This document shows, piece after piece, positions 8,614-55,322 of a stretch of 64,000 nt of DNA. Below the pieces are notes generated by a model. That model was not told where the DNA came from. It did no database searches and saw only the letters and a program-made list of their open reading frames with translations. The position numbers and the translations under genes are program-made. Each line of letters opens with the position of its first letter. Positions within the stretch are counted from its first letter, which is position 1. Origin of the DNA: Candidatus Kerfeldbacteria bacterium (GTDB lineage: Bacteria; Patescibacteriota; Patescibacteriia; UBA10025; JAHIVO01); assembly GCA_047946875.1 (NCBI GenBank), contig CP181398.1:143154-207153 (forward strand). Direction: 5' to 3'.

Positions 8614-9516
8614 ATGGAAAAAAATGAAAATTTAATATCAAAAAATATTGTAGTTATTATTGTATTTGTATTTGGGATTTTTATGCTTGGCGCGCTGGTA
8701 TACGATGCCTTTACTTCAAAAACATTAAGCGCAAGAGAAAGTACACTTATTTCAATTTTTAGTTCTTTTTTAATTGCACAAGGTTTTTACATTTTTGGTA
8801 AAACATCATCACGTATAGAAGCAATGGAAGGTTTTAAAGGGGAAACACAGAAAGCTTATCGTCGTTCAGAAATTATTAAAAAGAGTTCTGAAACCATACA
8901 GGCAATGTTGAGTTCACGAATGGGTGTATATAAAGCAAAAAAAGAATTGAATAATTCTGATCGAGACGCAATTCTAGAGATTTTTAGAAGTGGAATATTA
9001 CAAATGGACAGCTTAATTGATCATTTAAATGCTTCAATGAAGGATTGGGCAGACATTATTCCTGAATTTGTGGACAAAAGAAAAGAAGTAAATAAAAAAA
9101 TTGCAGATATAAGAGATGAATTAAATAAACAAAGAATCACTTTTTTAGAGGAAGTTGATAAAGTTAAAAAAGCAACTGAAAAGAGTGATGGGGAAAAGAA
9201 AAATGAGATTGATATATTAAAAACAAAAATAGGTGCACTTGAATCTGAAAAGTATTCAGAAATTAAACAGATAGATCCTCTGGATTCATTAGTATCCTCA
9301 CCAAGCGGAATGGGAGTTGTCTATAGTAATGCAGATAATGTTAGAATATTAAATTCAAATGAAGGTATTTTACCGAGAAGTTTTGTAGATGATTCTTTAA
9401 TTTCATCAGAAAATATGTTTCAATCTCGTGTCCCAGATTTAACAAAAGTTGAACCAAATGTAATTACTGGCATTCAAGTAAAAAAAGTTAAAAGCAAAGA
9501 AGAAACAAAGAAATAA
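8614..9516 (+). CDS. Hypothetical membrane protein with a coiled-coil region
   Basis: 300-aa ORF with one N-terminal TM and a long Lys/Glu-rich helical region. Confidence 0.6.
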   Translation: MEKNENLISKNIVVIIVFVFGIFMLGALVYDAFTSKTLSARESTLISIFSSFLIAQGFYIFGKTSSRIEAMEGFKGETQKAYRRSEIIKKSSETIQAMLSSRMGVYKAKKELNNSDRDAILEIFRSGILQMDSLIDHLNASMKDWADIIPEFVDKRKEVNKKIADIRDELNKQRITFLEEVDKVKKATEKSDGEKKNEIDILKTKIGALESEKYSEIKQIDPLDSLVSSPSGMGVVYSNADNVRILNSNEGILPRSFVDDSLISSENMFQSRVPDLTKVEPNVITGIQVKKVKSKEETKK

Positions 9517-9575
9517 TAATGAATTATCAAAGAATTAACCAAACCCTAGGAGCAGGCCTCTGTGCCTGCGACGCC

Positions 9576-9612
9576 ATAAAAAAACTGAGCGCACCCAGGG
9601 ACGGATGCGCTC
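9576..9612 (-). terminator. Rho-independent terminator on the minus strand (repeat copy 1 of 2)
   Basis: Minus-strand RNA GAGCGCA-uccgucccuggg-UGCGCUC followed by U7. The 29-nt core gcgcacccagggacggatgcgctcggagg recurs identically at 11161-11189. Confidence 0.6.
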
Positions 9613-9631
9613 GGAGGTTAATTACATACTT

Positions 9632-9771
9632 TTGTCACTTCGAACCTGCCTGCTCGCCTCGCTAAAGCTCGGACGAAGCGGGCCGGTAGGCAGGCGAAGA
9701 GAGAAGTCCTTATAACGATATTAGCATTTACTAACCTGATAAAGATCTCTCCGCTTCGGTCGAGATGACAA
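9632..9771. repeat. Long GC-rich structured intergenic element (extended member of the TTGTCA-box family / candidate sRNA)
   Basis: TTGTCAc at 9632 and ATGACAA at 9765 bracket a long imperfect hairpin: cttcg/cgaag, cctgcct/aggcagg, cgcttcg/cgaggcg. GC content is far above that of the flanks. The 73-aa minus-strand ORF track entry here is probably not coding. Confidence 0.45.
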
Positions 9772-11149: not shown

Positions 11150-11183
11150 AAAAAAAGTAGCGCACCCAGGGACGGATGCGCTC
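11150..11183 (-). terminator. Rho-independent terminator on the minus strand (repeat copy 2), in the 5' leader of the 10853..11071 gene
   Basis: Minus-strand GAGCGCA-uccgucccuggg-UGCGCU followed by U7, with the core identical to 9584-9612. Its position between a structured element and the downstream ORF suggests an attenuator. Confidence 0.55.
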
Positions 11184-11194
11184 GGAGGATTTCA

Positions 11195-11280
11195 TAACCA
11201 TAGAGAGCACACTTTCCGCCCATCTTCGCCTTTGACGAAACTAATGGCGGGCAGGTCTAGTGTGCGAACGAAATAGTATT
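11195..11280. repeat. GC-rich nested-hairpin structured element (outer stem GCACACT/AGTGTGC)
   Basis: gaGCACACTttccgcccatcttcgcctttgacgaaactaatggcgggcaggtctAGTGTGCg. Nested CCGCC/GGCGG and ttcg/cgaa stems. Contains the GGCGGGCAGG box. Confidence 0.5.
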
Positions 11281-25364: not shown

Positions 25365-27869
25365 ATGAATGTATTTGCAAATTTGATGGAAAATTCTGCT
25401 TTTCCAATTATTTTAGTTGGAATTTCTGTTTTAATTGTTGCGATAAGTTCTTTTTTAATTATTCGTCGTAACATGAGAAGTCAAAAAAAATTACCTAATG
25501 CATTGCAAAAGGTAATGTTATTGATCACTCTACCAAAAGAGTCAGAGATAAAAGAAGGAGAAAATAAACAAGAGTCTGTTGAAGAAATGTTGGTTGAGGC
25601 AGAAGCATTTTTAAATGCATTAGGCGGTATGAAGGCTCAACGTGGCGCTGCTAGTATAGTTGGAGGAAGAACTGATAATTTTTCATTTGAGATTGTTGCA
25701 TATGGAGGATTAATTTCATTTTATGTTGTTATTCCTAGATACTTACGTGATTATATGGAACAACATATTAGTGCTCAATATCCAGATGCGCAAATTGAAG
25801 AAACGGAAGAATTCAATTTATTTAGTCCCCAAAGTAAAATTGCAGCTACTACTCTAACATTTAAAAAGCAGTACATATTTCCCATAAGAACATATCGTGA
25901 GTTAGATGTTGATCCATTAAGTTCTCTTACTAATGTTTTATCAAAAATCGCTCCAGACGAAGGTGCGGTTATTCAGTATGTTGCCAGATCAGCAAAAGCA
26001 GAATGGAGAAATTGGGGAGCTCGTGTTGCAAAAGATATTCACAATGGTAGGGCGGTAAAAGAAGCTGTCGGAAGGAATGGTTTTTTGGGATTTCTTTTTG
26101 GATTATATAGAACTTTTGTACCTGAGAAAAAAAATGAATTAGACAAACAACATCAGTTATCAGCACGTGATGAGGAAATTGTAAAAAGTTTGGAAAACAA
26201 GGTTAGTAAGGCAGGGTTAGATGTAAATATTAGAATTATCGTTTCAACAAAGTCGCAAGAAAGATCACAAAAATATTTAAAAGATATTGTTGATTCTTTT
26301 AGTCAGTATTCTTCTTTTGAATATGGTAATGGTTTCGTGAGAAATGATCCGTATTTCAAAAAAGACCAATTAATATTGGACTATATTTATCGTACATTTA
26401 ATAAGAAAAAATTGTTGGTACTTAATACAGAAGAGATGGCGAGTTTATTTCACTTTCCTTTAGTTACCACAGAAACTCCTAATATTCGTTGGTTAGTAGC
26501 ACGTAAAGCACCAGCCCCAACCAATCTACCTAAAGAAGGATTGGTATTAGGTAAGAATCTTTATCGTGGCGAAGAGCATGTCGTTCGTATTAAACCTAAG
26601 GATCGACAGAGGCATGTATATGTAATAGGTAAATCTGGTGTTGGTAAATCTGTATTATTATCGAATATGATAATCCAAGATATTATTAATGGTGAGGGAG
26701 TCGGTGTTATTGATCCACATGGAGATTTGATTAATGATATATTAGCTCATATTCCTAAAGAGCGAGCTGAAGATGTTATACATTTCAATCCATCAGATCT
26801 TGATAGACCTATGGGTTTGAATATGTTAGAGGTATCTAGTCCAGATCAAAAAGATTTTGCGGTACAAGAAATGATTTCTATTTTTTATAAATTATTTCCA
26901 CCGGAGATGATTGGGCCGATGTTTGAACATAACATGAGGAATGTTATGTTAACTTTAATGGAAGATGAAGAAAATCCTGGTACTATTACAGATATTCCAA
27001 GGATGTTTACAGATCCTGCTTTTCAAAAATATAAATTATCCAAAGTAAAAGATCATGTTGTTAGAGCTTTTTGGGAACAGGAGATGGCTAAGACTTCTGA
27101 TTTTCATAAATCAGAGATGCTAGGATATTTGATCTCAAAAGTTGGTCGTTTTGTAGAGAATAGTATGATGAGAAATATTATTGGTCAGCCAAAGTCTGGA
27201 TTCAATTTTGAAGAGGTGATGAATAACAAAAAGATATTATTGGTTAATTTATCAAAAGGTACAACTGGCGAAGTAAATAGTAGTTTGTTAGGTTTAATAT
27301 TAGTATCTAAGCTTCAGATGGCTGCAATGAAAAGAGCATCGATGGCAGAAGAAGATAGAAAAGATTTTTACTTATATATTGATGAGTTTCAAAATTTTGT
27401 TACAGACAGTATCGCTACAATTTTATCTGAAGCTAGAAAATATCGTTTGGATTTAACTATTGCACATCAATATATTGGACAGCTACTTCAAGATAATGGG
27501 GATTCTAAGATTAAAGATGCTGTATTTGGTAATGTTGGTACTATGTTGGCTTTTCGTGTAGGCGTAGATGATGCTGAAGTATTAGCAAAAGAATTTGATC
27601 CAGTATTTAATGAATTTGATGCTATTAATGTAGAGATGTATACAGCTAATGTAAAATTATTAATTGATAATACTACTTCCAAGCCATTCAATATGATGAC
27701 TTATCCGCCACAACCTGGTAATCCAGAAATAGCTAAAAAAATAATCGAATTATCTAGATTGAAGTATGGTACTGATCGTAAAGTCATCGAAGCCGCAATG
27801 GCGGAAGTATCTAAGTTGGGGAATACTAAACCAGCACAAGGTCAGGCGACTGGTGAGAAAAGTATGTAA
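25365..27869 (+). CDS. FtsK/HerA/TraD-superfamily P-loop ATPase with N-terminal TM (T4SS coupling-protein / DUF87-like)
   Basis: Walker A VYVIGKSGVGKSVLLSNM...IDPHGDL. Walker B FYLYIDEFQNF. The 400-aa N-terminal region is of unknown function. Confidence 0.65.
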   Translation: MNVFANLMENSAFPIILVGISVLIVAISSFLIIRRNMRSQKKLPNALQKVMLLITLPKESEIKEGENKQESVEEMLVEAEAFLNALGGMKAQRGAASIVGGRTDNFSFEIVAYGGLISFYVVIPRYLRDYMEQHISAQYPDAQIEETEEFNLFSPQSKIAATTLTFKKQYIFPIRTYRELDVDPLSSLTNVLSKIAPDEGAVIQYVARSAKAEWRNWGARVAKDIHNGRAVKEAVGRNGFLGFLFGLYRTFVPEKKNELDKQHQLSARDEEIVKSLENKVSKAGLDVNIRIIVSTKSQERSQKYLKDIVDSFSQYSSFEYGNGFVRNDPYFKKDQLILDYIYRTFNKKKLLVLNTEEMASLFHFPLVTTETPNIRWLVARKAPAPTNLPKEGLVLGKNLYRGEEHVVRIKPKDRQRHVYVIGKSGVGKSVLLSNMIIQDIINGEGVGVIDPHGDLINDILAHIPKERAEDVIHFNPSDLDRPMGLNMLEVSSPDQKDFAVQEMISIFYKLFPPEMIGPMFEHNMRNVMLTLMEDEENPGTITDIPRMFTDPAFQKYKLSKVKDHVVRAFWEQEMAKTSDFHKSEMLGYLISKVGRFVENSMMRNIIGQPKSGFNFEEVMNNKKILLVNLSKGTTGEVNSSLLGLILVSKLQMAAMKRASMAEEDRKDFYLYIDEFQNFVTDSIATILSEARKYRLDLTIAHQYIGQLLQDNGDSKIKDAVFGNVGTMLAFRVGVDDAEVLAKEFDPVFNEFDAINVEMYTANVKLLIDNTTSKPFNMMTYPPQPGNPEIAKKIIELSRLKYGTDRKVIEAAMAEVSKLGNTKPAQGQATGEKSM

Positions 27870-27966
27870 ATAATTCATGAGTAATTATAATAAATATATA
27901 GCAATATTTATTATTGCAAGATTATTACTAATAATTCCGATTTTTTTTCTGTGAAGGCCATAACAG

Positions 27967-28271
27967 ATGTTAGTATTTGTGGTGTACTTAATTAAGATGA
28001 TGAAACTTATACTTTTACACAAGATATTTCTGTTACTGATCCCTGTATAGCTATAGCATGGGATAATATATCTTTAAATCTAAATAGTTATACTATTACA
28101 ATTAGTAAGAATGGATATCAAATTGCAACTTATACAATTACGCTAGGAAGTTCTCAAATTTTAAATTTTATATTGATCACAAATTATAGTAGTCAGTTAC
28201 TAGTTGTAGAAGAAGAATATGTTGCTCCAATTATTCCTCAGGTTAGAATAAATGAAGTGGATAACATATAG
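27967..28271 (+). pseudogene. Frameshifted small secreted-protein gene (-1 frameshift)
   Basis: The frame starting at ATG 27967 encodes a 27-aa signal-peptide-like segment (MLVFVVYLIKMMKLILLHKIFLLLIPV*). The frame shifted by -1 then stays open for 92 codons (27996..28271: DETYTFTQDISVTDPCIAIAWDNISLN...) with no start codon of its own. Confidence 0.3.
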
Positions 28272-28303
28272 ACATATAGTAAAAAAATAGTTATGATATT
28301 GGT

Positions 28304-28840
28304 ATGATAAATTTATTAATACTATTTCTTTTATTAATTGGGATTTTAATAATATTTGGTACAGCAATGTATGCAAGTTTTAGTGCTGCTCCTTGGTTAC
28401 CAGTTTTTAAAAAGGATATAAAAAGAATAATCCGATTGGCAAATTTAAAGCCAGGAGAGGTAATTTATGATCTTGGCTCAGGTGATGGTAGAGTTCTTAT
28501 TGGTTTAGCGAATAATTCAGAAGCAAGTAGAGTTATTGGGTATGAAATTTCTTTTCTTTTTTATGTTATTTCATATTTAAGAATTCTTTTTTTAGGCTTA
28601 TCAAATAAAGCTGAAATTATATTCGGAGATTTTTTACGTAGAGATTTAAGCAATGCTGATGTAATTTTTTTCTTTCTTACACCGATGGCAATGAAAAAAT
28701 TAAAACCAAAATTTGAAAAAGAATTAAAAAAGGGAACTCGAATAATATCTTACAGTTTTTCAATACCGGGTTGGGAAAAATTAAAGGTTGATCGTCCTAA
28801 TGAATCAGATATGCCTATACATATATATGTAGTTGACTAG
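28304..28840 (+). CDS. Membrane-anchored class I SAM-dependent methyltransferase
   Basis: N-terminal TM, then motif I VIYDLGSGDGRVLIGLA and post-I acidic residue. Confidence 0.65.
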   Translation: MINLLILFLLLIGILIIFGTAMYASFSAAPWLPVFKKDIKRIIRLANLKPGEVIYDLGSGDGRVLIGLANNSEASRVIGYEISFLFYVISYLRILFLGLSNKAEIIFGDFLRRDLSNADVIFFFLTPMAMKKLKPKFEKELKKGTRIISYSFSIPGWEKLKVDRPNESDMPIHIYVVD

Positions 28841-29672: not shown

Positions 29673-31292
29673 ATGTCTCAAGCTATATATAGAAAATATC
29701 GTCCAGCGCTTTTTGAAGATTTGGTAGGCCAAAATCACATAAAAGTAACATTACAAAATGAGATTGAGAATAATAGAATAGCTCATGCTTATTTGTTTTC
29801 TGGTCCTCGTGGAGTTGGTAAAACGACTACTGCAAGATTATTAGCTAAAGCAATAAATTGTGAAGACAAGAAAACAACTGAAGCATGTGATAAATGTAGT
29901 TTTTGTAAAGAGATAAATGCAAAACGATCAATGGATGTTATAGAAATTGACGCTGCATCTCATACTGGAGTAGATAATGTTAGAGAAAATATTATTGAGA
30001 ATTCTAGATTTACGCCCCAGCATTTGAAATATAAAGTGTTTATAATTGATGAGGTGCATATGCTATCTTTATCAGCTTTTAATGCATTGCTAAAAACACT
30101 TGAAGAGCCACCTGAACATGTAATTTTTATTCTTGCCACAACAGAGATTCATCGTGTACCAGAGACAATAATTTCTAGATGTCAGCGTTTTGATTTTAAG
30201 CGTGTTAATATTAGCGATTTGATAAGTCGATTGAAATATATAGCTGGTAAAGAAAAGGTAAAAATAGAACAAGCATTATTAGAAAATATTGCCCAACGCG
30301 CAGAAGGGTCAGTAAGAGATGCAGAAGTATTACTTTCCCAAGTTCTTACTTTAGGAGAAAAAGAATTAACTATAGAAAATTCATCTATGGTGATACCTCG
30401 TTCTAATATCAATATGGTTGTTGAGTTATTTTTTTATTTATTAAAGAATGATGGCGCGAGTGCAATATCATTAGTAAATAAACTTATTGATGAAGGTGTT
30501 AACATTCAAGATTTTAATAAAGATTTAGTAGATTTTATGAGACGGGTATTACTATCTAAAGTTAGTAATTCCTCTAATGAATTATCTGGAATTTCTTTAG
30601 ATGAAAAAATTATTAAAGATATTCAAAAACAGGTTATAAATATATCAGTAGGACGTTTGGTAAAAATGATAGAAATTGTTATATCAAAAAATAATGAATT
30701 TAAATATTCGAATATTATACAATTACCGTTAGAGTTAGCTATCTTAGAAATTGTTGATACGGAAGATGATTCTGAAAATGATAATTTACTCAGCCCGCCA
30801 AGTGGGGGACAGAAAAGTGACAAGACTAATATTGCTAAACCTAAAATATTAAAACCTAAATTAGCACCTGATAAAAAAGTAATTAAAAGTGAGACATTAA
30901 CTAACAAAAGTAAATCAGTGCCTCGACCGGCACTTTTTGAAAAAATCAAAGAGTCATGGCTAGAGTATATTACCGGTTTAAGAGAGCATAATCATTCAAT
31001 AAGTATGATCATGAAGGTTGGTGTCCCAGTATCTTTTAAAGATGAAACTTTAACAATAGGTTTTCGTTATAAATTTCACTCTGAAAAAATTGAGGAAGTG
31101 GAGGTTAAGAATATTATTGAAAAATATCTTGAAGAGCAGTTAGGTCAGCATATTAAAATAGCGGTAACTTTGTTATCGGAAAATGAATTTAATAAATATA
31201 TTGATGAGCCTGATTTTTCCAGTAATACATCTAATGTATTAAATCAGGCCGTTGAGGCATTTGGCGGGGAAGTTTCAGAAGAAGAATTATAA
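29673..31292 (+). CDS. dnaX: DNA polymerase III subunit gamma/tau
   Basis: GPRGVGKTT Walker A, zinc module CDKCSFC, DEVHMLS Walker B, and the SRC sensor. Confidence 0.93.
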   Translation: MSQAIYRKYRPALFEDLVGQNHIKVTLQNEIENNRIAHAYLFSGPRGVGKTTTARLLAKAINCEDKKTTEACDKCSFCKEINAKRSMDVIEIDAASHTGVDNVRENIIENSRFTPQHLKYKVFIIDEVHMLSLSAFNALLKTLEEPPEHVIFILATTEIHRVPETIISRCQRFDFKRVNISDLISRLKYIAGKEKVKIEQALLENIAQRAEGSVRDAEVLLSQVLTLGEKELTIENSSMVIPRSNINMVVELFFYLLKNDGASAISLVNKLIDEGVNIQDFNKDLVDFMRRVLLSKVSNSSNELSGISLDEKIIKDIQKQVINISVGRLVKMIEIVISKNNEFKYSNIIQLPLELAILEIVDTEDDSENDNLLSPPSGGQKSDKTNIAKPKILKPKLAPDKKVIKSETLTNKSKSVPRPALFEKIKESWLEYITGLREHNHSISMIMKVGVPVSFKDETLTIGFRYKFHSEKIEEVEVKNIIEKYLEEQLGQHIKIAVTLLSENEFNKYIDEPDFSSNTSNVLNQAVEAFGGEVSEEEL

Positions 31293-31394
31293 AATAATGC
31301 GGGATCGACTACCTTCGCATATATGCTACGGCAGGCAGGTCTAATGGTAGGGTTATAGTTGTTAAATTTATTCTAAACTATAGTTCTAAATATT

Positions 31395-31465
31395 ATTAAT
31401 TCAATGCGGGATCGTCTAATGGTAGGACAGCGGCCTCTGAAGCCGCTAATCCTGGTTCGAGTCCA
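31395..31465 (+). tRNA. tRNA-Gln (anticodon CUG)
   Basis: Acceptor stem TGCGGGA/TCCCGCA, D-arm TCTAATGGTAGGA, anticodon stem-loop GCGGC-CUCUGAA-GCCGC with anticodon CUG, T-arm CCTGGTTCGAGTCCAGG, and discriminator G. CCA is not encoded. Confidence 0.85.
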
Positions 31466-31738
31466 GGTCCCGCAGAATTTAAACAGTTAAAATATCATAA
31501 AATAAAAATATAATTAGGGCACTTGCCCTACTAATAATTGGGAGGTCCAGGCTTGCCTGCCGATAGGCAGGTCCCGCAATTTAATCAATAAAAAAAGTCC
31601 TTTAGTATTAAAGAACTTGGATTTTTTTATTTGATTGTTATACTTTTGGATAGCACTATTAGCTATTTTAAAAGCATTATGATAGGGTGTATTTGTAAAG
31701 AGTAATATAGTTACTCTTGTTTTTTTACTATAAATGTT

Positions 31739-33010
31739 ATGAAAAATGAAAATACATCTAATTTTTATGGGCTCGGATTAGCTCCGAAACTTCTTGATAT
31801 ATTAGATAATAATAAGTTTACAACTCCGACGCCAATCCAAGAAAAAACTATCCCTTTGTTAATTGAAGGAAAAGATCTTATTGGTATTGCTCAAACAGGG
31901 ACTGGCAAAACGTTGGCTTTTGGTATTCCGATGATGCAAAATATTGCACGTTTAAAAACACGTGGACTTATCTTAGTGCCTACAAGAGAGTTAGCAGCAC
32001 AAGTTAATGAAGTATTATTACAGCTTGGTAAATCATTGGGTCTGAAAACTGTCGTTATAGTTGGTGGCGCTCCTTCACATCCACAGAAAAAAGCACTTCG
32101 AACTAAACCACATATTATTGTTGCTACACCTGGACGATTGATTGACCATCTTTCACAAAATAAATCATTACTAGAGGATATCGGTATTTTAGTACTTGAT
32201 GAAGCGGATCGTATGTTAGATATGGGGTTTGCTCCGCAGATAGAAAAAATACTTATTAAAACATCAAAAAAAAGACAGACCATGTTATTTTCTGCTACTA
32301 TGCCACAATCGATTGTTGCTATAGCTAATAAACATATGAGTTTGCCTTTGCGTGTAGAGATAGATCAGCCTGGTACTACTGTTAAAGAGATTGATCAAGA
32401 AGTAATTTTCCTCTCTGTTAGTGATAAGATAAAAATGTTAGAGATAATGCTCAATCGTTATCGTGGATCAATATTAGTTTTTTCTAGGACGAAACATGGC
32501 GCCAAAAAATTAACTACAAAGATTCGTGCTATGCATTATACTGTTGCTGAAATTCATTCAAACAGAAGTTTGGCTCAGCGGAAATTTGCTATTGAAGGAT
32601 TCAAAAAAGGTTCACATCGAATATTGGTAGCGACAGATATTGCTGCTCGAGGGATTGATGTGAATAACATTGAGTTAGTAATAAATTATGATTTGCCAAG
32701 TACACCTGATGATTATGTTCATCGTATAGGGCGAACAGCCAGAGCTGGTAAAAAGGGTAAAGCAGTTTCATTTGCTACTATGGATCAGCAAAGAGATGTT
32801 CAAGATATTGAAAGGTTGATAAAAATGCAACTTGCTGTTGGTGCAGAAAGTTTAACACCAAAACCTGTACAACGAGGAGGACGTCAACAACGAGGTGGTA
32901 ATTCTAATAACCGTTCAAACTCATACAAAAGAAGAAATAACTCAGGTAATTCTGGTAGATCACACAATAAAAGAAGATATCCAAAGTCTAAGGGGTTTAA
33001 GCGTTTTTAA
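31739..33010 (+). CDS. DEAD-box ATP-dependent RNA helicase with basic RGG/KRR C-terminal tail
   Basis: Q-motif TPIQ, AQTGTGKT, DEAD (VLDEADRMLDMGF), SAT, and HRIGRTARAG. Confidence 0.93.
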   Translation: MKNENTSNFYGLGLAPKLLDILDNNKFTTPTPIQEKTIPLLIEGKDLIGIAQTGTGKTLAFGIPMMQNIARLKTRGLILVPTRELAAQVNEVLLQLGKSLGLKTVVIVGGAPSHPQKKALRTKPHIIVATPGRLIDHLSQNKSLLEDIGILVLDEADRMLDMGFAPQIEKILIKTSKKRQTMLFSATMPQSIVAIANKHMSLPLRVEIDQPGTTVKEIDQEVIFLSVSDKIKMLEIMLNRYRGSILVFSRTKHGAKKLTTKIRAMHYTVAEIHSNRSLAQRKFAIEGFKKGSHRILVATDIAARGIDVNNIELVINYDLPSTPDDYVHRIGRTARAGKKGKAVSFATMDQQRDVQDIERLIKMQLAVGAESLTPKPVQRGGRQQRGGNSNNRSNSYKRRNNSGNSGRSHNKRRYPKSKGFKRF

Positions 33011-47184: not shown

Positions 47185-47319
47185 GAGAGTATATTTGATT
47201 CTTGGATTCCAGCCTTTAGGCTGTTACATATAAAACCCTAAAGCCTGCCTGCCGGCAGGGGTTAATTCTTTGTTATTATAATAGATGACAGAGGGGGGTG
47301 AATAATATATAATGTAGCT

Positions 47320-54946: not shown

Positions 54947-55026
54947 ATTGTCATCCTGAACAAAGTGAAGGATCTAATTATAACAAATCAAGGTTAAAGA
55001 TTCTTCGCTACACTCAGAATGACAAG
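54947..55026. repeat. GC-rich nested-hairpin intergenic repeat, TTGTCAT-box family, copy D
   Basis: TTGTCATcctgaacaaagtgaaggatc...ctcagaATGACAAg, located between the convergent purA and GIY-YIG genes. Confidence 0.55.
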
Positions 55027-55028
55027 TT

Positions 55029-55322
55029 TTACCACCATTGAGCTAAATCAGTCCAGTCTGAATTAATACTATCAATTAATCTAATTTTCTTTATTCTTAA
55101 CCACCCTTTCAACTGCTTTTCCCTCATAATAGCGTCTTCTATATATTGATGCTCTTCATAATAAACTAATTTATTAAGATTATATTTAAATGTAAACCCT
55201 TTTTGTAGCTTATTCTTATGCTCAAATACTCTCCACTGTAAATTAGAAGTAACTCCAATATACAGAATTTTATTAGACCAATTTGTCATTATATATACAT
55301 AATATTGTCTATTCATACACAA
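55029..55322 (-). CDS. GIY-YIG nuclease-domain protein
   Basis: YYVYIMTN...ILYIGVTSNLQWRVFEHK...GW matches the GIY-YIG motif. Confidence 0.85.
   Translation of the reverse strand: MCMNRQYYVYIMTNWSNKILYIGVTSNLQWRVFEHKNKLQKGFTFKYNLNKLVYYEEHQYIEDAIMREKQLKGWLRIKKIRLIDSINSDWTDLAQWW

Follow-up and report, generated by a model that had tools for sequence, protein, structure and literature searches.

Fragments of a broken tRNA-Gln gene around an intact copy in a Kerfeldbacteria genome: a probable relic of a small nuclease-tRNA cassette

The intergenic region between dnaX and a DEAD-box helicase gene in the window (the whole 64-kb stretch of Candidatus Kerfeldbacteria DNA analyzed here) holds an intact tRNA-Gln(CUG) at 31405-31475, the sole tRNA of the window, with interrupted pieces of the same tRNA on both sides. 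Comparison with relatives and other genomes makes it probable that the locus is what remains, without the nuclease gene, of a small selfish cassette whose targets are tRNA genes of Patescibacteria. In its full form, as we read it from genome sequences, the cassette consists of a ~82-aa stand-alone GIY-YIG gene (catalytic domain only), an intact tRNA-Gln and a dead, palindrome-bearing copy of that tRNA. Nuclease cassettes that supply a replacement tRNA while breaking the resident gene at a fixed nucleotide are apparently undescribed in bacteria.

Anatomy of the dnaX-helicase intergenic region

The intergenic region spans 446 nt and, from the 5′ fragment onward, contains the following features, all on the + strand.

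31298..31307, +, 5′ fragment TGCGGGATCG of a dead tRNA-Gln copy (10/10 exact versus 31405-31414)
31308..31339, +, 32-nt insertion between G10 and U11; putative decayed member of the CCTGCC...GGCAGG palindrome family
31340..31351, +, D-arm fragment TCTAATGGTAGG of the dead copy (exact, tRNA 11-22)
31352..31404, +, AT-rich spacer of 53 nt, at the place of the ~250-nt GIY-YIG gene in full elements
31405..31475, +, tRNA-Gln(CUG), functional copy (ARAGORN; Rfam tRNA 63.8 bits)
31476..31543, +, spacer with a small hairpin TAGGGCACTTGCCCTA (31515-31530), missing from the relative L003
31544..31551, +, T-stem 3′ strand fragment GGTCCAGG (7-nt exact block, tRNA 57-63, tRNA order kept)
31552..31571, +, 20-nt insertion CTTGCCTGCCGATAGGCAGG between T-stem and acceptor 3′ strand, with the hairpin CCTGCC-GATA-GGCAGG intact
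31572..31578, +, acceptor 3′ strand fragment TCCCGCA (tRNA 64-70)
31579..31658, +, ~80 nt missing from the L003 empty site (alignment with L003 and L004), with inverted repeats I2 and I10

ARAGORN and Rfam call the intact tRNA-Gln(CUG) alone at this locus, at 31405-31475; the fragments are not called. An initial annotation had nevertheless described split tRNA-like fragments around the tRNA, and both a reading of the sequence and a repeat finder bear this out. The upstream piece begins 5 nt after the dnaX stop codon and is composed as then proposed, of the acceptor 5′ strand and D-arm with a 32-nt insertion; tRNA positions 1-10 (the acceptor 5′ strand plus U8, C9, and G10) and 11-22 match exactly, and the D-arm block grows to 13 nt when the last G of the insert is counted. 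The downstream piece was likewise correctly described as the T-stem 3′ and acceptor 3′ strands (57-63 and 64-70) parted by a 20-nt hairpin; its TCCCGCA belongs to an 11-nt exact block CAGGTCCCGCA. By identity and order, the flanking pieces read as the two ends of one dead tRNA-Gln copy, and the intact tRNA-Gln appears to be positioned inside it. Positions 23-56 are still absent from the dead copy when both inserts are taken out, so a split, permuted, or intron-containing functional tRNA is ruled out. The spacer at 31476-31543 may be what decay has left of the dead copy's anticodon, variable, and T-arm region; its similarity to the tRNA is not significant. Rfam finds no intron or other family in the locus or its relatives, so we reject the idea that the fragments hold a group I intron or another known RNA family, and an assembly artifact is ruled out by the same design in assemblies of different projects.

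As a statistic, aligning the flanks locally to the tRNA with gaps proved uninformative, and counts of exact blocks were used instead. The immediate flanks (240 nt) contain three exact matches of ≥10 nt to the tRNA, in tRNA order; elsewhere, there are five same-strand matches of this length in 128 kb (both strands). The summed block length was reached by 1 in 5,000 shuffles of the upstream flank and by 6 in 5,000 of the downstream flank. The resemblance of the flanks, for which a test against chance had been suggested, is thus well above it: split tRNA copies flank this tRNA-Gln far beyond chance.

Both inserts had been taken for GC-rich hairpins, a description that suits the 3′ insert (−11.1 kcal/mol, z −3.4; 0 occurrences of its CCTGCC-N-GGCAGG pattern expected by chance) and fails for the 5′ insert, which folds no better than shuffled sequence (z +0.5). 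The 5′ insert (31308-31339) keeps an intact right arm GGCAGGCAGG at 31330-31339, identical to the right arm of a long hairpin in the relative L006; its left arm is mutated to ACTACCTTCG, and its center is GCATATATGC. It therefore looks like one half of a palindrome, the other half having decayed. The left part of the 3′ insert and the right arm of the 5′ insert complement each other (inverted repeat I7, with 31329-31342; 14 nt, 86% complementary), and CAGG is present at both junctions of the 3′ insert. A scan of the 64-kb window for dispersed palindromes returned two exact CCTGCC-N-GGCAGG hairpins, at 31556 and 47244, and approximately five related arms. Further copies of the box had been placed at 9649, at 47228, and in other intergenic hairpins; the second is exact (at 47244), 9645-9694 is a 50-nt hairpin whose arms are related only, and the hairpins at 11246 and 39980 are of the CCCGCC/GGCGGG type.

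Relatives and the cassette in other genomes

One relative, L003 (dnaX 79% identical), has dnaX, an identical tRNA-Gln, and the DEAD-box gene in the same order, with a 171-nt intergenic region and zero fragments; it reads as an empty site between the same flanking genes. All 71 of 71 tRNA nucleotides are invariant in the alignment of the window with L003 and L004, and the flank common to the relatives restarts at TTAGCTATTTTAAAAGC (31659), just beyond a segment that carries an A/T-flanked inverted repeat at 31583-31636. The comparison with related genomes that the initial annotation called for thus indicates that the fragments are not conserved promoter elements, since L003 does without them.

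Other relatives carry debris at this position. In the closest, L002 (dnaX 86%), the same place is taken by two 5′ fragments that contain hairpin inserts, followed by a GIY-YIG ORF; its hairpins are of other families and its GIY protein is of another subfamily, so the events in the window and in L002 are possibly independent. In L006 (61%) the resident tRNA-Gln is split in the D-arm and encloses fragments, an intact tRNA-Gln, and a GIY-YIG ORF. L005 (61%) has the layout of the window, namely a 5′ fragment with an insert, the intact tRNA, and a 3′ remainder with inserts. L005 and L004 resemble the split 3′ fragment of the window loosely only (the alignment of the downstream inserts of the window and L004 is not significant), and the exact split 3′ fragment occurs at the window's locus only among 137 tRNAs tested. 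The GIY-YIG genes of debris-bearing relatives encode 80-97 aa, and some loci are without one.

A wider search revealed at least 10 independent Patescibacteria loci in which a dead tRNA-Gln copy is interrupted between G10 and U11 by a perfect 18-bp palindrome, CCTGCCTGCGCAGGCAGG (12 instances between tRNA positions 10 and 11, 10 of them non-redundant). A piece equal to tRNA 1-10 lies directly 5′ of the palindrome in 10 loci other than that of the window. In 8 of the 10 loci an 82-aa GIY-YIG gene and, behind it, an intact tRNA-Gln form a unit beside the palindrome; gene and tRNA are 4-20 nt apart in the full cassette. Two layouts occur. In one, the GIY ORF starts 34-38 nt past the palindrome start, or 61 nt past it in a single locus, with the intact tRNA at ~290 nt; in the other, the order is GIY gene, intact tRNA, 15-30 nt, and the palindrome-bearing copy. 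The association is tight: among sampled tRNA-Gln loci, a GIY ORF adjoins the tRNA in 5 of 7 that bear the palindrome versus 0 of ~73 others. The pattern used for collection, GATCG-N15-45-TCTAATGGTAGG, was too loose, its 120 rows being mostly ordinary tRNA-Gln genes with an upstream GATCG by chance; it served as the control sample.

The window locus fits this arrangement: tRNA 1-10, an insert, and tRNA 11-22 on the same strand as the nearby intact tRNA-Gln, with the insert at a site identical to that of the canonical palindrome. The palindrome itself, CCTGCCTGCGCAGGCAGG, and its variant CCCGCCTCG...CGAGGCGGG are absent from the locus, where the 32-nt insert is found instead. In full elements, the piece equivalent to the D-arm fragment supplies the ribosome-binding region of the nuclease gene, and in most loci the fragment and the intact tRNA beside the nuclease gene have one and the same D-arm sequence. 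Searches of the window with six GIY proteins (tblastn) find no GIY-YIG ORF (~82 aa) by the fragment or the intact tRNA, no ORF or protein similarity left in the spacer at 31352-31404, and only an unrelated copy at 55029-55315. Two other loci, L090 and L111, are also nuclease-less and retain the fragment, the palindrome, and the tRNA, with a spacer of ~30 nt at the place of the 53-nt spacer in the window; that of L090 starts with ATGTG and ends in a sequence resembling the 3′ end of a GIY gene, and L111 shares with the D-arm fragment of the window a breakpoint between GGTAGG and GT. Elsewhere, interrupted copies are cut short or their acceptor strands do not match, an uninterrupted copy always adjoins them, and in other genomes the 5′ fragment is present without a 3′ partner.

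Clustered at 90% identity, the GIY family comprises at least 364 clusters, with lengths of 75-135 aa (mostly 80-100) and Pfam GIY-YIG as the only domain. The associated proteins (80-97 aa) match PF01541 only and are without a DNA-binding domain; one weak PHROG homing-endonuclease match was found among the GIY proteins. Homologs with a named source belong to Patescibacteria lineages, and two of the three with fetched context lie directly 3′ of dnaX, as at the window locus. The same palindrome and nuclease recur together beyond tRNA-Gln: in L156 they flank a tRNA-Leu(GAG), along with a 40-nt direct repeat, and in L176 both are embedded in an RNase P RNA gene. The bare 18-mer occurs in many non-tRNA contexts in metagenomes; among the at least 120 metagenome 18-mer loci listed, L156 and L176 proved to lie in stable-RNA gene contexts and tRNA-Gln contexts number zero. 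Scans of viral sequences gave zero matches to the canonical 31-mer, and for the hairpin plus TCCCGCA only chance matches in GC-rich phage contigs.

Candidate origins of the debris

Under the favored reading of the window locus as a cassette relic, the old resident tRNA-Gln beside dnaX would survive as its ends, positions 1-22 on the upstream side and 57-70 on the downstream side, with a CCTGCC/GGCAGG-family palindrome breaking up each of them, and the working tRNA-Gln would lie between them on ~190 nt of AT-rich DNA. A nuclease gene between the 5′ fragment and the intact tRNA would have been deleted, and the 5′ palindrome would have decayed. We infer the past presence of this gene from the relatives, the 53-nt spacer holding no GIY trace. 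In naive genomes, the putative nuclease would cut tRNA-Gln genes in or near the D-arm, and repair of the break would be templated by the cassette-bearing copy, with the tRNA-derived pieces on either side of the nuclease gene acting as portable homology arms. Because an insertion would kill the 71-nt tRNA copy, a second, intact tRNA would travel with the nuclease; the functional tRNA would arrive together with the nuclease gene, and the broken resident copy would stay. Repeat cuts and misaligned repair could then give rise to nested and duplicated fragments. The palindrome would mark and disable the dead copy; a dimeric nuclease may bind to it, or it may serve as an immunity mark.

Several observations sit uneasily with the cassette. 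A nuclease that cuts the shared D-arm sequence should cut its own intact tRNA too. Given its many non-tRNA contexts in metagenomes, the 18-mer is possibly an independent element. The 5′ insert of the window is 32 nt long and unfolded rather than the canonical 18-mer, the exact split 3′ fragment is without a counterpart among the 137 tRNAs, and the GIY proteins lack a DNA-binding domain, unlike the phage nuclease SegB discussed below.

A bolder form of the cassette, in which palindrome, mini-nuclease, and tRNA make up one self-contained "replace and disable" unit, is conceivable and in our judgment unlikely. A catalytic-domain-only GIY-YIG dimer would act on the 18-bp palindrome or on cloverleaf-shaped DNA in stable-RNA genes; it would install the palindrome at the fixed resident tRNA junctions 10/11 and T-stem/acceptor and so kill that copy, and the element would supply its own tRNA copy, leaving the host unable to lose it. 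If true, the strategy would be one of addiction through gene replacement, extending to tRNA-Leu and RNase P RNA genes, and the unit would represent a new class of mobile element targeting RNA-gene structure rather than DNA sequence.

A rather doubtful alternative dispenses with the nuclease: the tRNA-Gln would have been duplicated in place by slippage or unequal recombination, the extra copies would have decayed, and REP- or MITE-like GC palindromes roaming this AT-rich genome would then have inserted harmlessly into the dead DNA. The absence of a nuclease gene from the window locus, the family hairpins at other intergenic sites (47244, 9645-9694, and 39980), the wide occurrence of the 18-mer outside tRNA genes, and a weak duplication of bases beyond the tRNA ends (repeats D2 and D3) would all follow naturally. 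However, two inserts within ~40 nt of dead tRNA compare with approximately one hairpin per 13 kb elsewhere in the window, the site between G10 and U11 is repeated in more than 10 genomes and with two hairpin families, and the tight tie to GIY-plus-tRNA units is left unexplained; moreover, a simple tandem duplication would have copied the tRNA's own flanks too, and the spacers around the fragments are no such copies. The earlier idea of a former tRNA copy broken by mobile GC hairpins survives in part: the dead-copy ends and the recurrence of palindromes, at the same tRNA position in many genomes and at other intergenic sites of the window, agree with it; the association with a nuclease and a replacement tRNA was missed, as were the apparent nesting of the intact tRNA in the dead one and the decay of the 5′ insert.

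It is very improbable that the fragments and GC inserts are a functional RNA, pairing in the primary transcript as a long-range stem that guides processing or expression of the tRNA or helicase. The minimum free energy fold of 31290-31600 does pair 31298-31306 with 31570-31578 in an acceptor-like helix and 31329-31342 with 31549-31562 (GGCAGGCAGG with CUUGCCUGCC, the I7 repeat), and the fold around the tRNA reaches −101 kcal/mol with a z of −5.9, a score that counts the tRNA itself. Halves of one former tRNA and arms from a single palindrome family pair in this way automatically, however. The 3′ hairpin is self-folding, L003 shares the genes and the tRNA but none of the structure, and fragments in other genomes have no 3′ partner with which to pair.

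tRNA genes are classic landing sites for integrases, and the initial annotation had offered attL/attR remnants of a since-deleted integrase-type element attached at tRNA-Gln as its other explanation; despite a partial 3′-end copy downstream of the tRNA, as is classic for att sites, a type IV secretion coupling-protein gene 3.5 kb upstream, and an rve-type integrase gene downstream in L006, we discard this reading as the least credible of all, because no integrase lies at or near the window locus (its neighbors are dnaX and the DEAD-box helicase gene) or at this position in relatives, which have GIY-YIG genes instead, because the T4SS-like gene, a DOT1-like gene, and dnaX are syntenic across relatives, even in the empty-site genome, and hence not an island, and because the geometry is wrong, with only ~70 nt from the tRNA to the 3′ fragment, repeats enclosing ~70-100 nt, and both the upstream 5′-end fragment and the inserts inside the repeats unexplained. 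Excision of an integrase element restores its site and leaves no remnants, and att duplication concerns the 3′ end of the tRNA, so a 5′-end fragment upstream is not expected.

If the cassette reading is correct, it would account for odd tRNA debris and for short-contig breaks near tRNA genes in CPR bins, and tRNA and RNase P RNA genes would join the known rRNA-gene insertions of CPR. How an 82-aa GIY-YIG domain with no DNA-binding domain locates its target could also be tested in this system; for biochemistry, the perfectly conserved 18-bp palindrome at a single tRNA position provides a handle. Annotation warrants caution, as false or missed tRNA calls are likely at cassette loci. In L006 and L258, ARAGORN places the start of a spurious tRNA within the palindrome.

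Comparison with known systems

For the arrangement as a whole, the literature yielded nothing closer than SegB and the CPR rRNA insertions. Dispersed short GC-rich palindromes are familiar as REP/BIME and MITE-like repeats and as the GC clusters of yeast and fungal mitochondria. REPs are mobilized by RAYT transposases, and fungal mitochondria pair GC clusters with free-standing GIY-YIG genes and duplicated tRNA pieces. The palindromes described here are similar in being GC-rich, of variable length, with conserved arms, and in lying in the intergenic DNA of an AT-rich genome; unlike REPs and MITEs, the cassette palindrome has a precise, recurrent site in the tRNA and a fixed distance to the nuclease gene.

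In archaea and red algae, disrupted tRNA genes carry short hairpin-forming inserts at unusual positions, the D-arm and T-arm included; those genes are complete, and the bulge-helix-bulge splicing endonuclease removes the inserts (PMC3978253, PMC3728597). The interrupted copies of the cassette differ in being truncated or acceptor-mismatched, with an uninterrupted copy adjoining.

SegB of phages T4 and T6 is a free-standing GIY-YIG homing endonuclease encoded in the phage tRNA gene cluster; its cleavage target is the conserved T-psi-C motif within tRNA genes, it is inherited with the neighboring tRNA genes, and its cuts drive segmental duplication and amplification of these genes by homologous recombination (PMC2330249; PMC13096335). 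A nuclease gene beside tRNA genes matches the nuclease-plus-tRNA unit of the cassette and its nested or duplicated fragments. The differences are considerable: SegB is a phage protein whose full-length form has a C-terminal part beyond the catalytic domain, whereas the cassette proteins match the catalytic domain only, are 80-97 aa putative nucleases, and are encoded on Patescibacteria chromosomes, the window locus being without a nuclease gene. A conserved palindrome and a dead target copy split at a fixed position, both features of the cassette, are absent from the SegB papers (PMC2330249; PMC13096335).

The 16S and 23S rRNA genes of CPR bacteria contain non-intron insertions, some of which encode GIY-YIG proteins (PMC11270868). 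These insertions are tolerated or removed, and tRNA genes, palindromes, and hairpins go unmentioned in that work (PMC11270868). They resemble the cassette in interrupting stable-RNA genes in the same bacterial group, and the RNase P RNA case (L176) is similar to them.

tRNA-Gln and its flanking fragments between dnaX and a helicase gene

The window is part of a contig from a bacterium of the Patescibacteria (CPR) and has a low GC content, ~33%. An identical dnaX product is found on NCBI contig SWBW01001817.1 (assembly GCA_008633325.1), and the source-named homologues of this product are labeled Patescibacteria, Buchananbacteria, Parcubacteria or Falkowbacteria. The tRNA and its fragments lie in the gap of 446 nt between dnaX and the helicase gene:

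29673-31292, plus strand: dnaX
31298-31307: 5′ fragment TGCGGGATCG, tRNA positions 1-10, upstream of tRNA-Gln
31308-31339: 5′ insert, 32 unrelated bases
31340-31351: TCTAATGGTAGG, tRNA positions 11-22
31405-31475: intact tRNA-Gln(CUG)
31544-31551: GGTCCAGG, T-stem 3′ strand, downstream of tRNA-Gln
31552-31571: 20-nt 3′ insert CTTGCCTGCCGATAGGCAGG
31572-31578: TCCCGCA, acceptor 3′ strand
31739-33010, plus strand: DEAD-box helicase gene

The tRNA finder suggested by the initial annotation (ARAGORN) and Rfam both identify this one intact tRNA as the sole tRNA of the whole 64 kb. The pieces of tRNA-Gln that had been described on either side of it, split by inserts of 32 nt and 20 nt, are borne out by coordinates and exact identities and lie above shuffles: the observed block sums were equalled in 1/5000 shuffles upstream and 6/5000 downstream. 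The 240 nt of immediate flanks contain three exact matches to the tRNA that are 10 nt or longer, ordered as in the tRNA itself; the remaining 128 kb (both strands) contain five. Both inserts had been taken for GC hairpins, which holds for the 3′ insert (−11.1 kcal/mol, z −3.4), but the fold of the 5′ insert is no better than that of its shuffles, and a single arm, GGCAGGCAGG, is left of it.

The same locus in relatives

The region after dnaX was taken from genomes with dnaX 86-61% identical to that of the window. One relative (L003, dnaX 79%) has an empty site: dnaX is followed after 11 nt by an identical tRNA-Gln and then the helicase promoter region, and the gap of 171 nt is fragment-free. 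This comparison, which had also been suggested at the outset, shows that the fragments are not conserved regulatory DNA. In L002 (dnaX 86%), TGCGAGATCG, a 38-nt hairpin and TCTAATAG directly follow dnaX; next come a further 5′ fragment, which has a different hairpin, and an 80-aa GIY-YIG ORF, where the contig ends. The resident tRNA-Gln of L006 (dnaX 61%) is split in the D-arm, its 5′ end lying after dnaX and the remainder ~750 nt further. The split encloses a 70-nt hairpin of the form CCTGCC...GGCAGGCAGG, a further two 5′ fragments, an intact tRNA-Gln that represents another allele, and a GIY-YIG ORF of 97 aa. The layout of the window recurs, without a nuclease gene, in L005 (dnaX 61%): a 5′ fragment with insert, ~30 nt, an intact tRNA-Gln, ~40 nt and a dead-tRNA remainder with inserts in the T-arm. 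The insert sequence TTCCTCCAAAG... is common to its 5′ and 3′ pieces, a parallel to the window, with CCTGCC/GGCAGG-type inserts in both pieces.

Taken together, these four loci suggest that the two fragments of the window derive from opposite ends of a single old resident gene and that the working tRNA sits inside it on ~190 nt of AT-rich DNA. Among 137 tRNAs tested there is no second example of the exact split 3′ fragment; L005 and L004 resemble it only loosely. Upstream of dnaX (25365-28840) lie genes for a type IV secretion coupling-protein-like product (834 aa) and a DOT1-like methyltransferase; both are syntenic in L003 and L005 and are therefore core neighbors, not an island.

A cassette of nuclease gene, intact tRNA and palindrome-split copy

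A search of 185,579 species genomes with a loose pattern returned mostly ordinary tRNA-Gln genes, which served as a control sample, and seven loci with an insert exactly between positions 10 and 11 (G10|U11) of a tRNA-Gln 5′ fragment. The insert is a perfect 18-bp palindrome, CCTGCCTGCGCAGGCAGG, in six of the seven, one copy having a C-to-T change; the seventh insert is a variant form of a hairpin, CCCGCCTCG...CGAGGCGGG, known from L002 and L006. These loci have two layouts. In layout A, positions 1-10, the palindrome and positions 11-25 or further are followed, after 2-6 nt in most loci, by an 82-aa GIY-YIG ORF, with the intact tRNA-Gln 4-20 nt past its stop codon. The D-arm remnant so placed before the start codon (GGTAGGA; AGGAGG in L264) is probably the ribosome-binding site of the ORF. 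Layout B comprises the GIY-YIG ORF, the intact tRNA-Gln, 15-30 nt, and then positions 1-10 (often degenerate), palindrome and positions 11-72; the acceptor stem of the palindrome-bearing copy in L258 is pairable. Across 12 palindrome instances (10 non-redundant), the layout A ORF starts 34-38 nt after the palindrome start (61 nt in L108) and the intact tRNA 287-313 nt after it. In the control sample, a GIY ORF adjoins tRNA-Gln in five of seven palindrome-bearing loci, vs. none of ~73 others. All three GIY homologues with fetched contexts have the cassette design, two of them directly after dnaX; L253 and L264 show layout A, L258 and L260 layout B.

A loose motif, AGTCAG-N8-10-CGAGG, occurs just downstream of the intact tRNA-Gln in L027, L090, L264 and L087 and may mark where the element ends on the right. 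At two sites (L006:4900-4971, L258:1559-1635), ARAGORN reports a tRNA-Gln whose start lies within the dead-copy palindrome, with a hairpin arm as acceptor strand; such calls are a likely source of false tRNAs in CPR bins.

A profile built from four cassette GIY proteins matches at least 364 clusters of 75-135 aa (most 80-100), whose source names include Levybacteria, Portnoybacteria, Wildermuthbacteria and Minisyncoccota. Pfam finds the GIY-YIG catalytic domain only; the cassette proteins have no DNA-binding domain. Since these proteins are 50-54% identical to the first whereas the palindrome is identical at 18/18 positions in 11 of 12 instances, the palindrome is strongly constrained or spreading on its own. 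The sole GIY-YIG gene of the window, an unrelated 95-aa ORF (55029-55315, minus strand; Pfam GIY-YIG only), belongs to a different subfamily from the tRNA-associated one. It is followed by an inverted repeat, GTCATTCTGAGTGTAGCGAAGAATC ... GATCCTTCACTTTGTTCAGGATGAC (region 54950-55315); similar GTCATYC... arms flank the 18-mer in several metagenome matches (L172, L179, L219, L233, L250).

The cassette design is not limited to tRNA-Gln. Among the listed matches of the 18-mer in metagenome contigs is a tRNA-Leu(GAG) version (L156:11310-11840), in which a 40-nt direct repeat (D-arm piece, palindrome, CGCGCACGC) flanks a GIY-YIG ORF and an intact tRNA-Leu on both sides, the second repeat running on into the remainder of another tRNA-Leu allele. 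Its dead copy has a further 40-nt hairpin insert after the acceptor 5′ strand. At L176:9154-9802 (minus strand), the Rfam class A model for bacterial RNase P RNA matches in full but is spread over 649 nt (E = 1.5e-24), the gene containing the palindrome (9679-9696) and, 110 nt from it, a GIY-YIG ORF (9288-9569) framed by an inverted repeat, CCCCCACCGTTTT / AAAACGGTGGGGG. The remaining listed matches are mostly in unrelated contexts. About eight of those listed lie inside short tandem repeats of 7-9 nt (among them L137, L141, L154, L161, L201, L208, L251; units such as AACTTTG, GAATTAA, GGAAAAT and CCGAATC) and are therefore flanked by 9-12-nt direct repeats.

Further copies of the CCTGCC-N-GGCAGG box had been reported in the window. 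The exact box is present at 31556 and 47244 only; the copy placed near 9649 is instead a 50-nt hairpin (9645-9694, −30 kcal/mol) with related arms, CCTGCCTGC / GGTAGGCAGG. The tRNA-associated palindrome and the long L006 hairpin have arms of this family too, which suggests a group of hairpins whose ends are conserved while the middle varies. The other window hairpins compared are of CCCGCC/GGCGGG type. A 30-nt GC-rich intergenic repeat, AGCGCACCCAGGGACGGATGCGCTCGGAGG (hairpin, then GGAGG), occurs twice ~1.5 kb apart (9589-9618, 11160-11189), with no Rfam match at either copy, and at 11206-11262 a stem (GCACACT / AGTGTGC) around a GC hairpin (CCGCCCA...TGGCGGG) ending CAGGTCT resembles a further case of a hairpin set within a helix. 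Palindromes number two in the dead tRNA copy of the window, three in L005 and two in L156, against ~1 per 13 kb elsewhere in the window, which argues for targeting to tRNA-like sequence or structure.

Origin of the window locus and a possible mode of action

Two cassette loci, L090 and L111, have positions 1-10, the palindrome, positions 11-22/23, ~30 nt and an intact tRNA, without a nuclease gene. The L090 spacer starts with ATGTG and its end resembles the 3′ end of a GIY gene; it can be read as an internal deletion of the ORF. L111 shares the breakpoint GGTAGG|GT with the window, whose 53-nt spacer has no GIY similarity left. In the 5′ insert of the window, ACTACCTTCGCA agrees with CCTGCCTGCGCA at 9/12 positions, followed by 10 extra bases and the intact arm GGCAGGCAGG, identical to the right arm of the L006 long hairpin; we therefore regard the insert as related to the palindrome but decayed. 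The window locus is most likely a decayed, nuclease-less member of the cassette family, a relic with no likely present function, and its interest lies in the family to which its remains point.

Local duplication followed by unrelated hairpin insertion would fit the missing nuclease gene and the similar hairpins elsewhere in the window, but leaves both the fixed insertion site and the GIY link unexplained, and we consider it unlikely. The predicted fold suggests a functional long-range RNA stem around tRNA-Gln; this is very improbable, as such pairing arises automatically when both halves come from a single tRNA and the inserts from a single palindrome family, and the stem is absent from L003. 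The att-site remnants of an excised integrative element proposed initially are scarcely credible, with no integrase at the locus and the wrong geometry.

The comparisons show the anatomy, the empty site of L003, the fixed insertion position and the association of palindrome, nuclease gene and intact tRNA; beyond these, a mode of action can be proposed for the cassette family by analogy. SegB of phages T4/T6, a homing endonuclease of the GIY-YIG type, makes its cuts within tRNA genes, is inherited with neighboring tRNA genes and causes their segmental amplification via homologous recombination (PMC2330249; PMC13096335). We infer that the small GIY nuclease would target naive tRNA-Gln genes, cutting them in the D-arm or close to it, and that the break would be repaired from a cassette-bearing copy, with the tRNA-derived pieces beside the nuclease gene as homology arms. 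Only products restoring an intact tRNA would be viable, so that nuclease gene and working tRNA would arrive together while the old copy would remain broken. Further rounds of cutting, with repair out of register, would yield the nested fragments of L002 and L006, and in layout A the ORF would be transcribed from the old tRNA promoter. Two points fit this scheme poorly: the cassette proteins lack a DNA-binding domain, and the D-arm of the fragment is usually found unchanged in the intact tRNA beside the nuclease gene, so that a D-arm-directed nuclease should cut its own tRNA too. The palindrome could be a binding site for a dimeric nuclease, an immunity mark of the dead copy, an mRNA 5′ stabilizer, or an independent mini-element surviving only in dead tRNA copies.

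Full-text literature searches yielded no account of a nuclease-plus-tRNA unit on a bacterial chromosome that is linked to a dead tRNA copy split at G10|U11 by a conserved palindrome. Among known systems, those closest to the cassette are free-standing GIY-YIG endonucleases of the SegB type, from phage tRNA clusters, and insertions other than introns in the rRNA genes of CPR bacteria, a number of which code for GIY-YIG proteins (PMC11270868).
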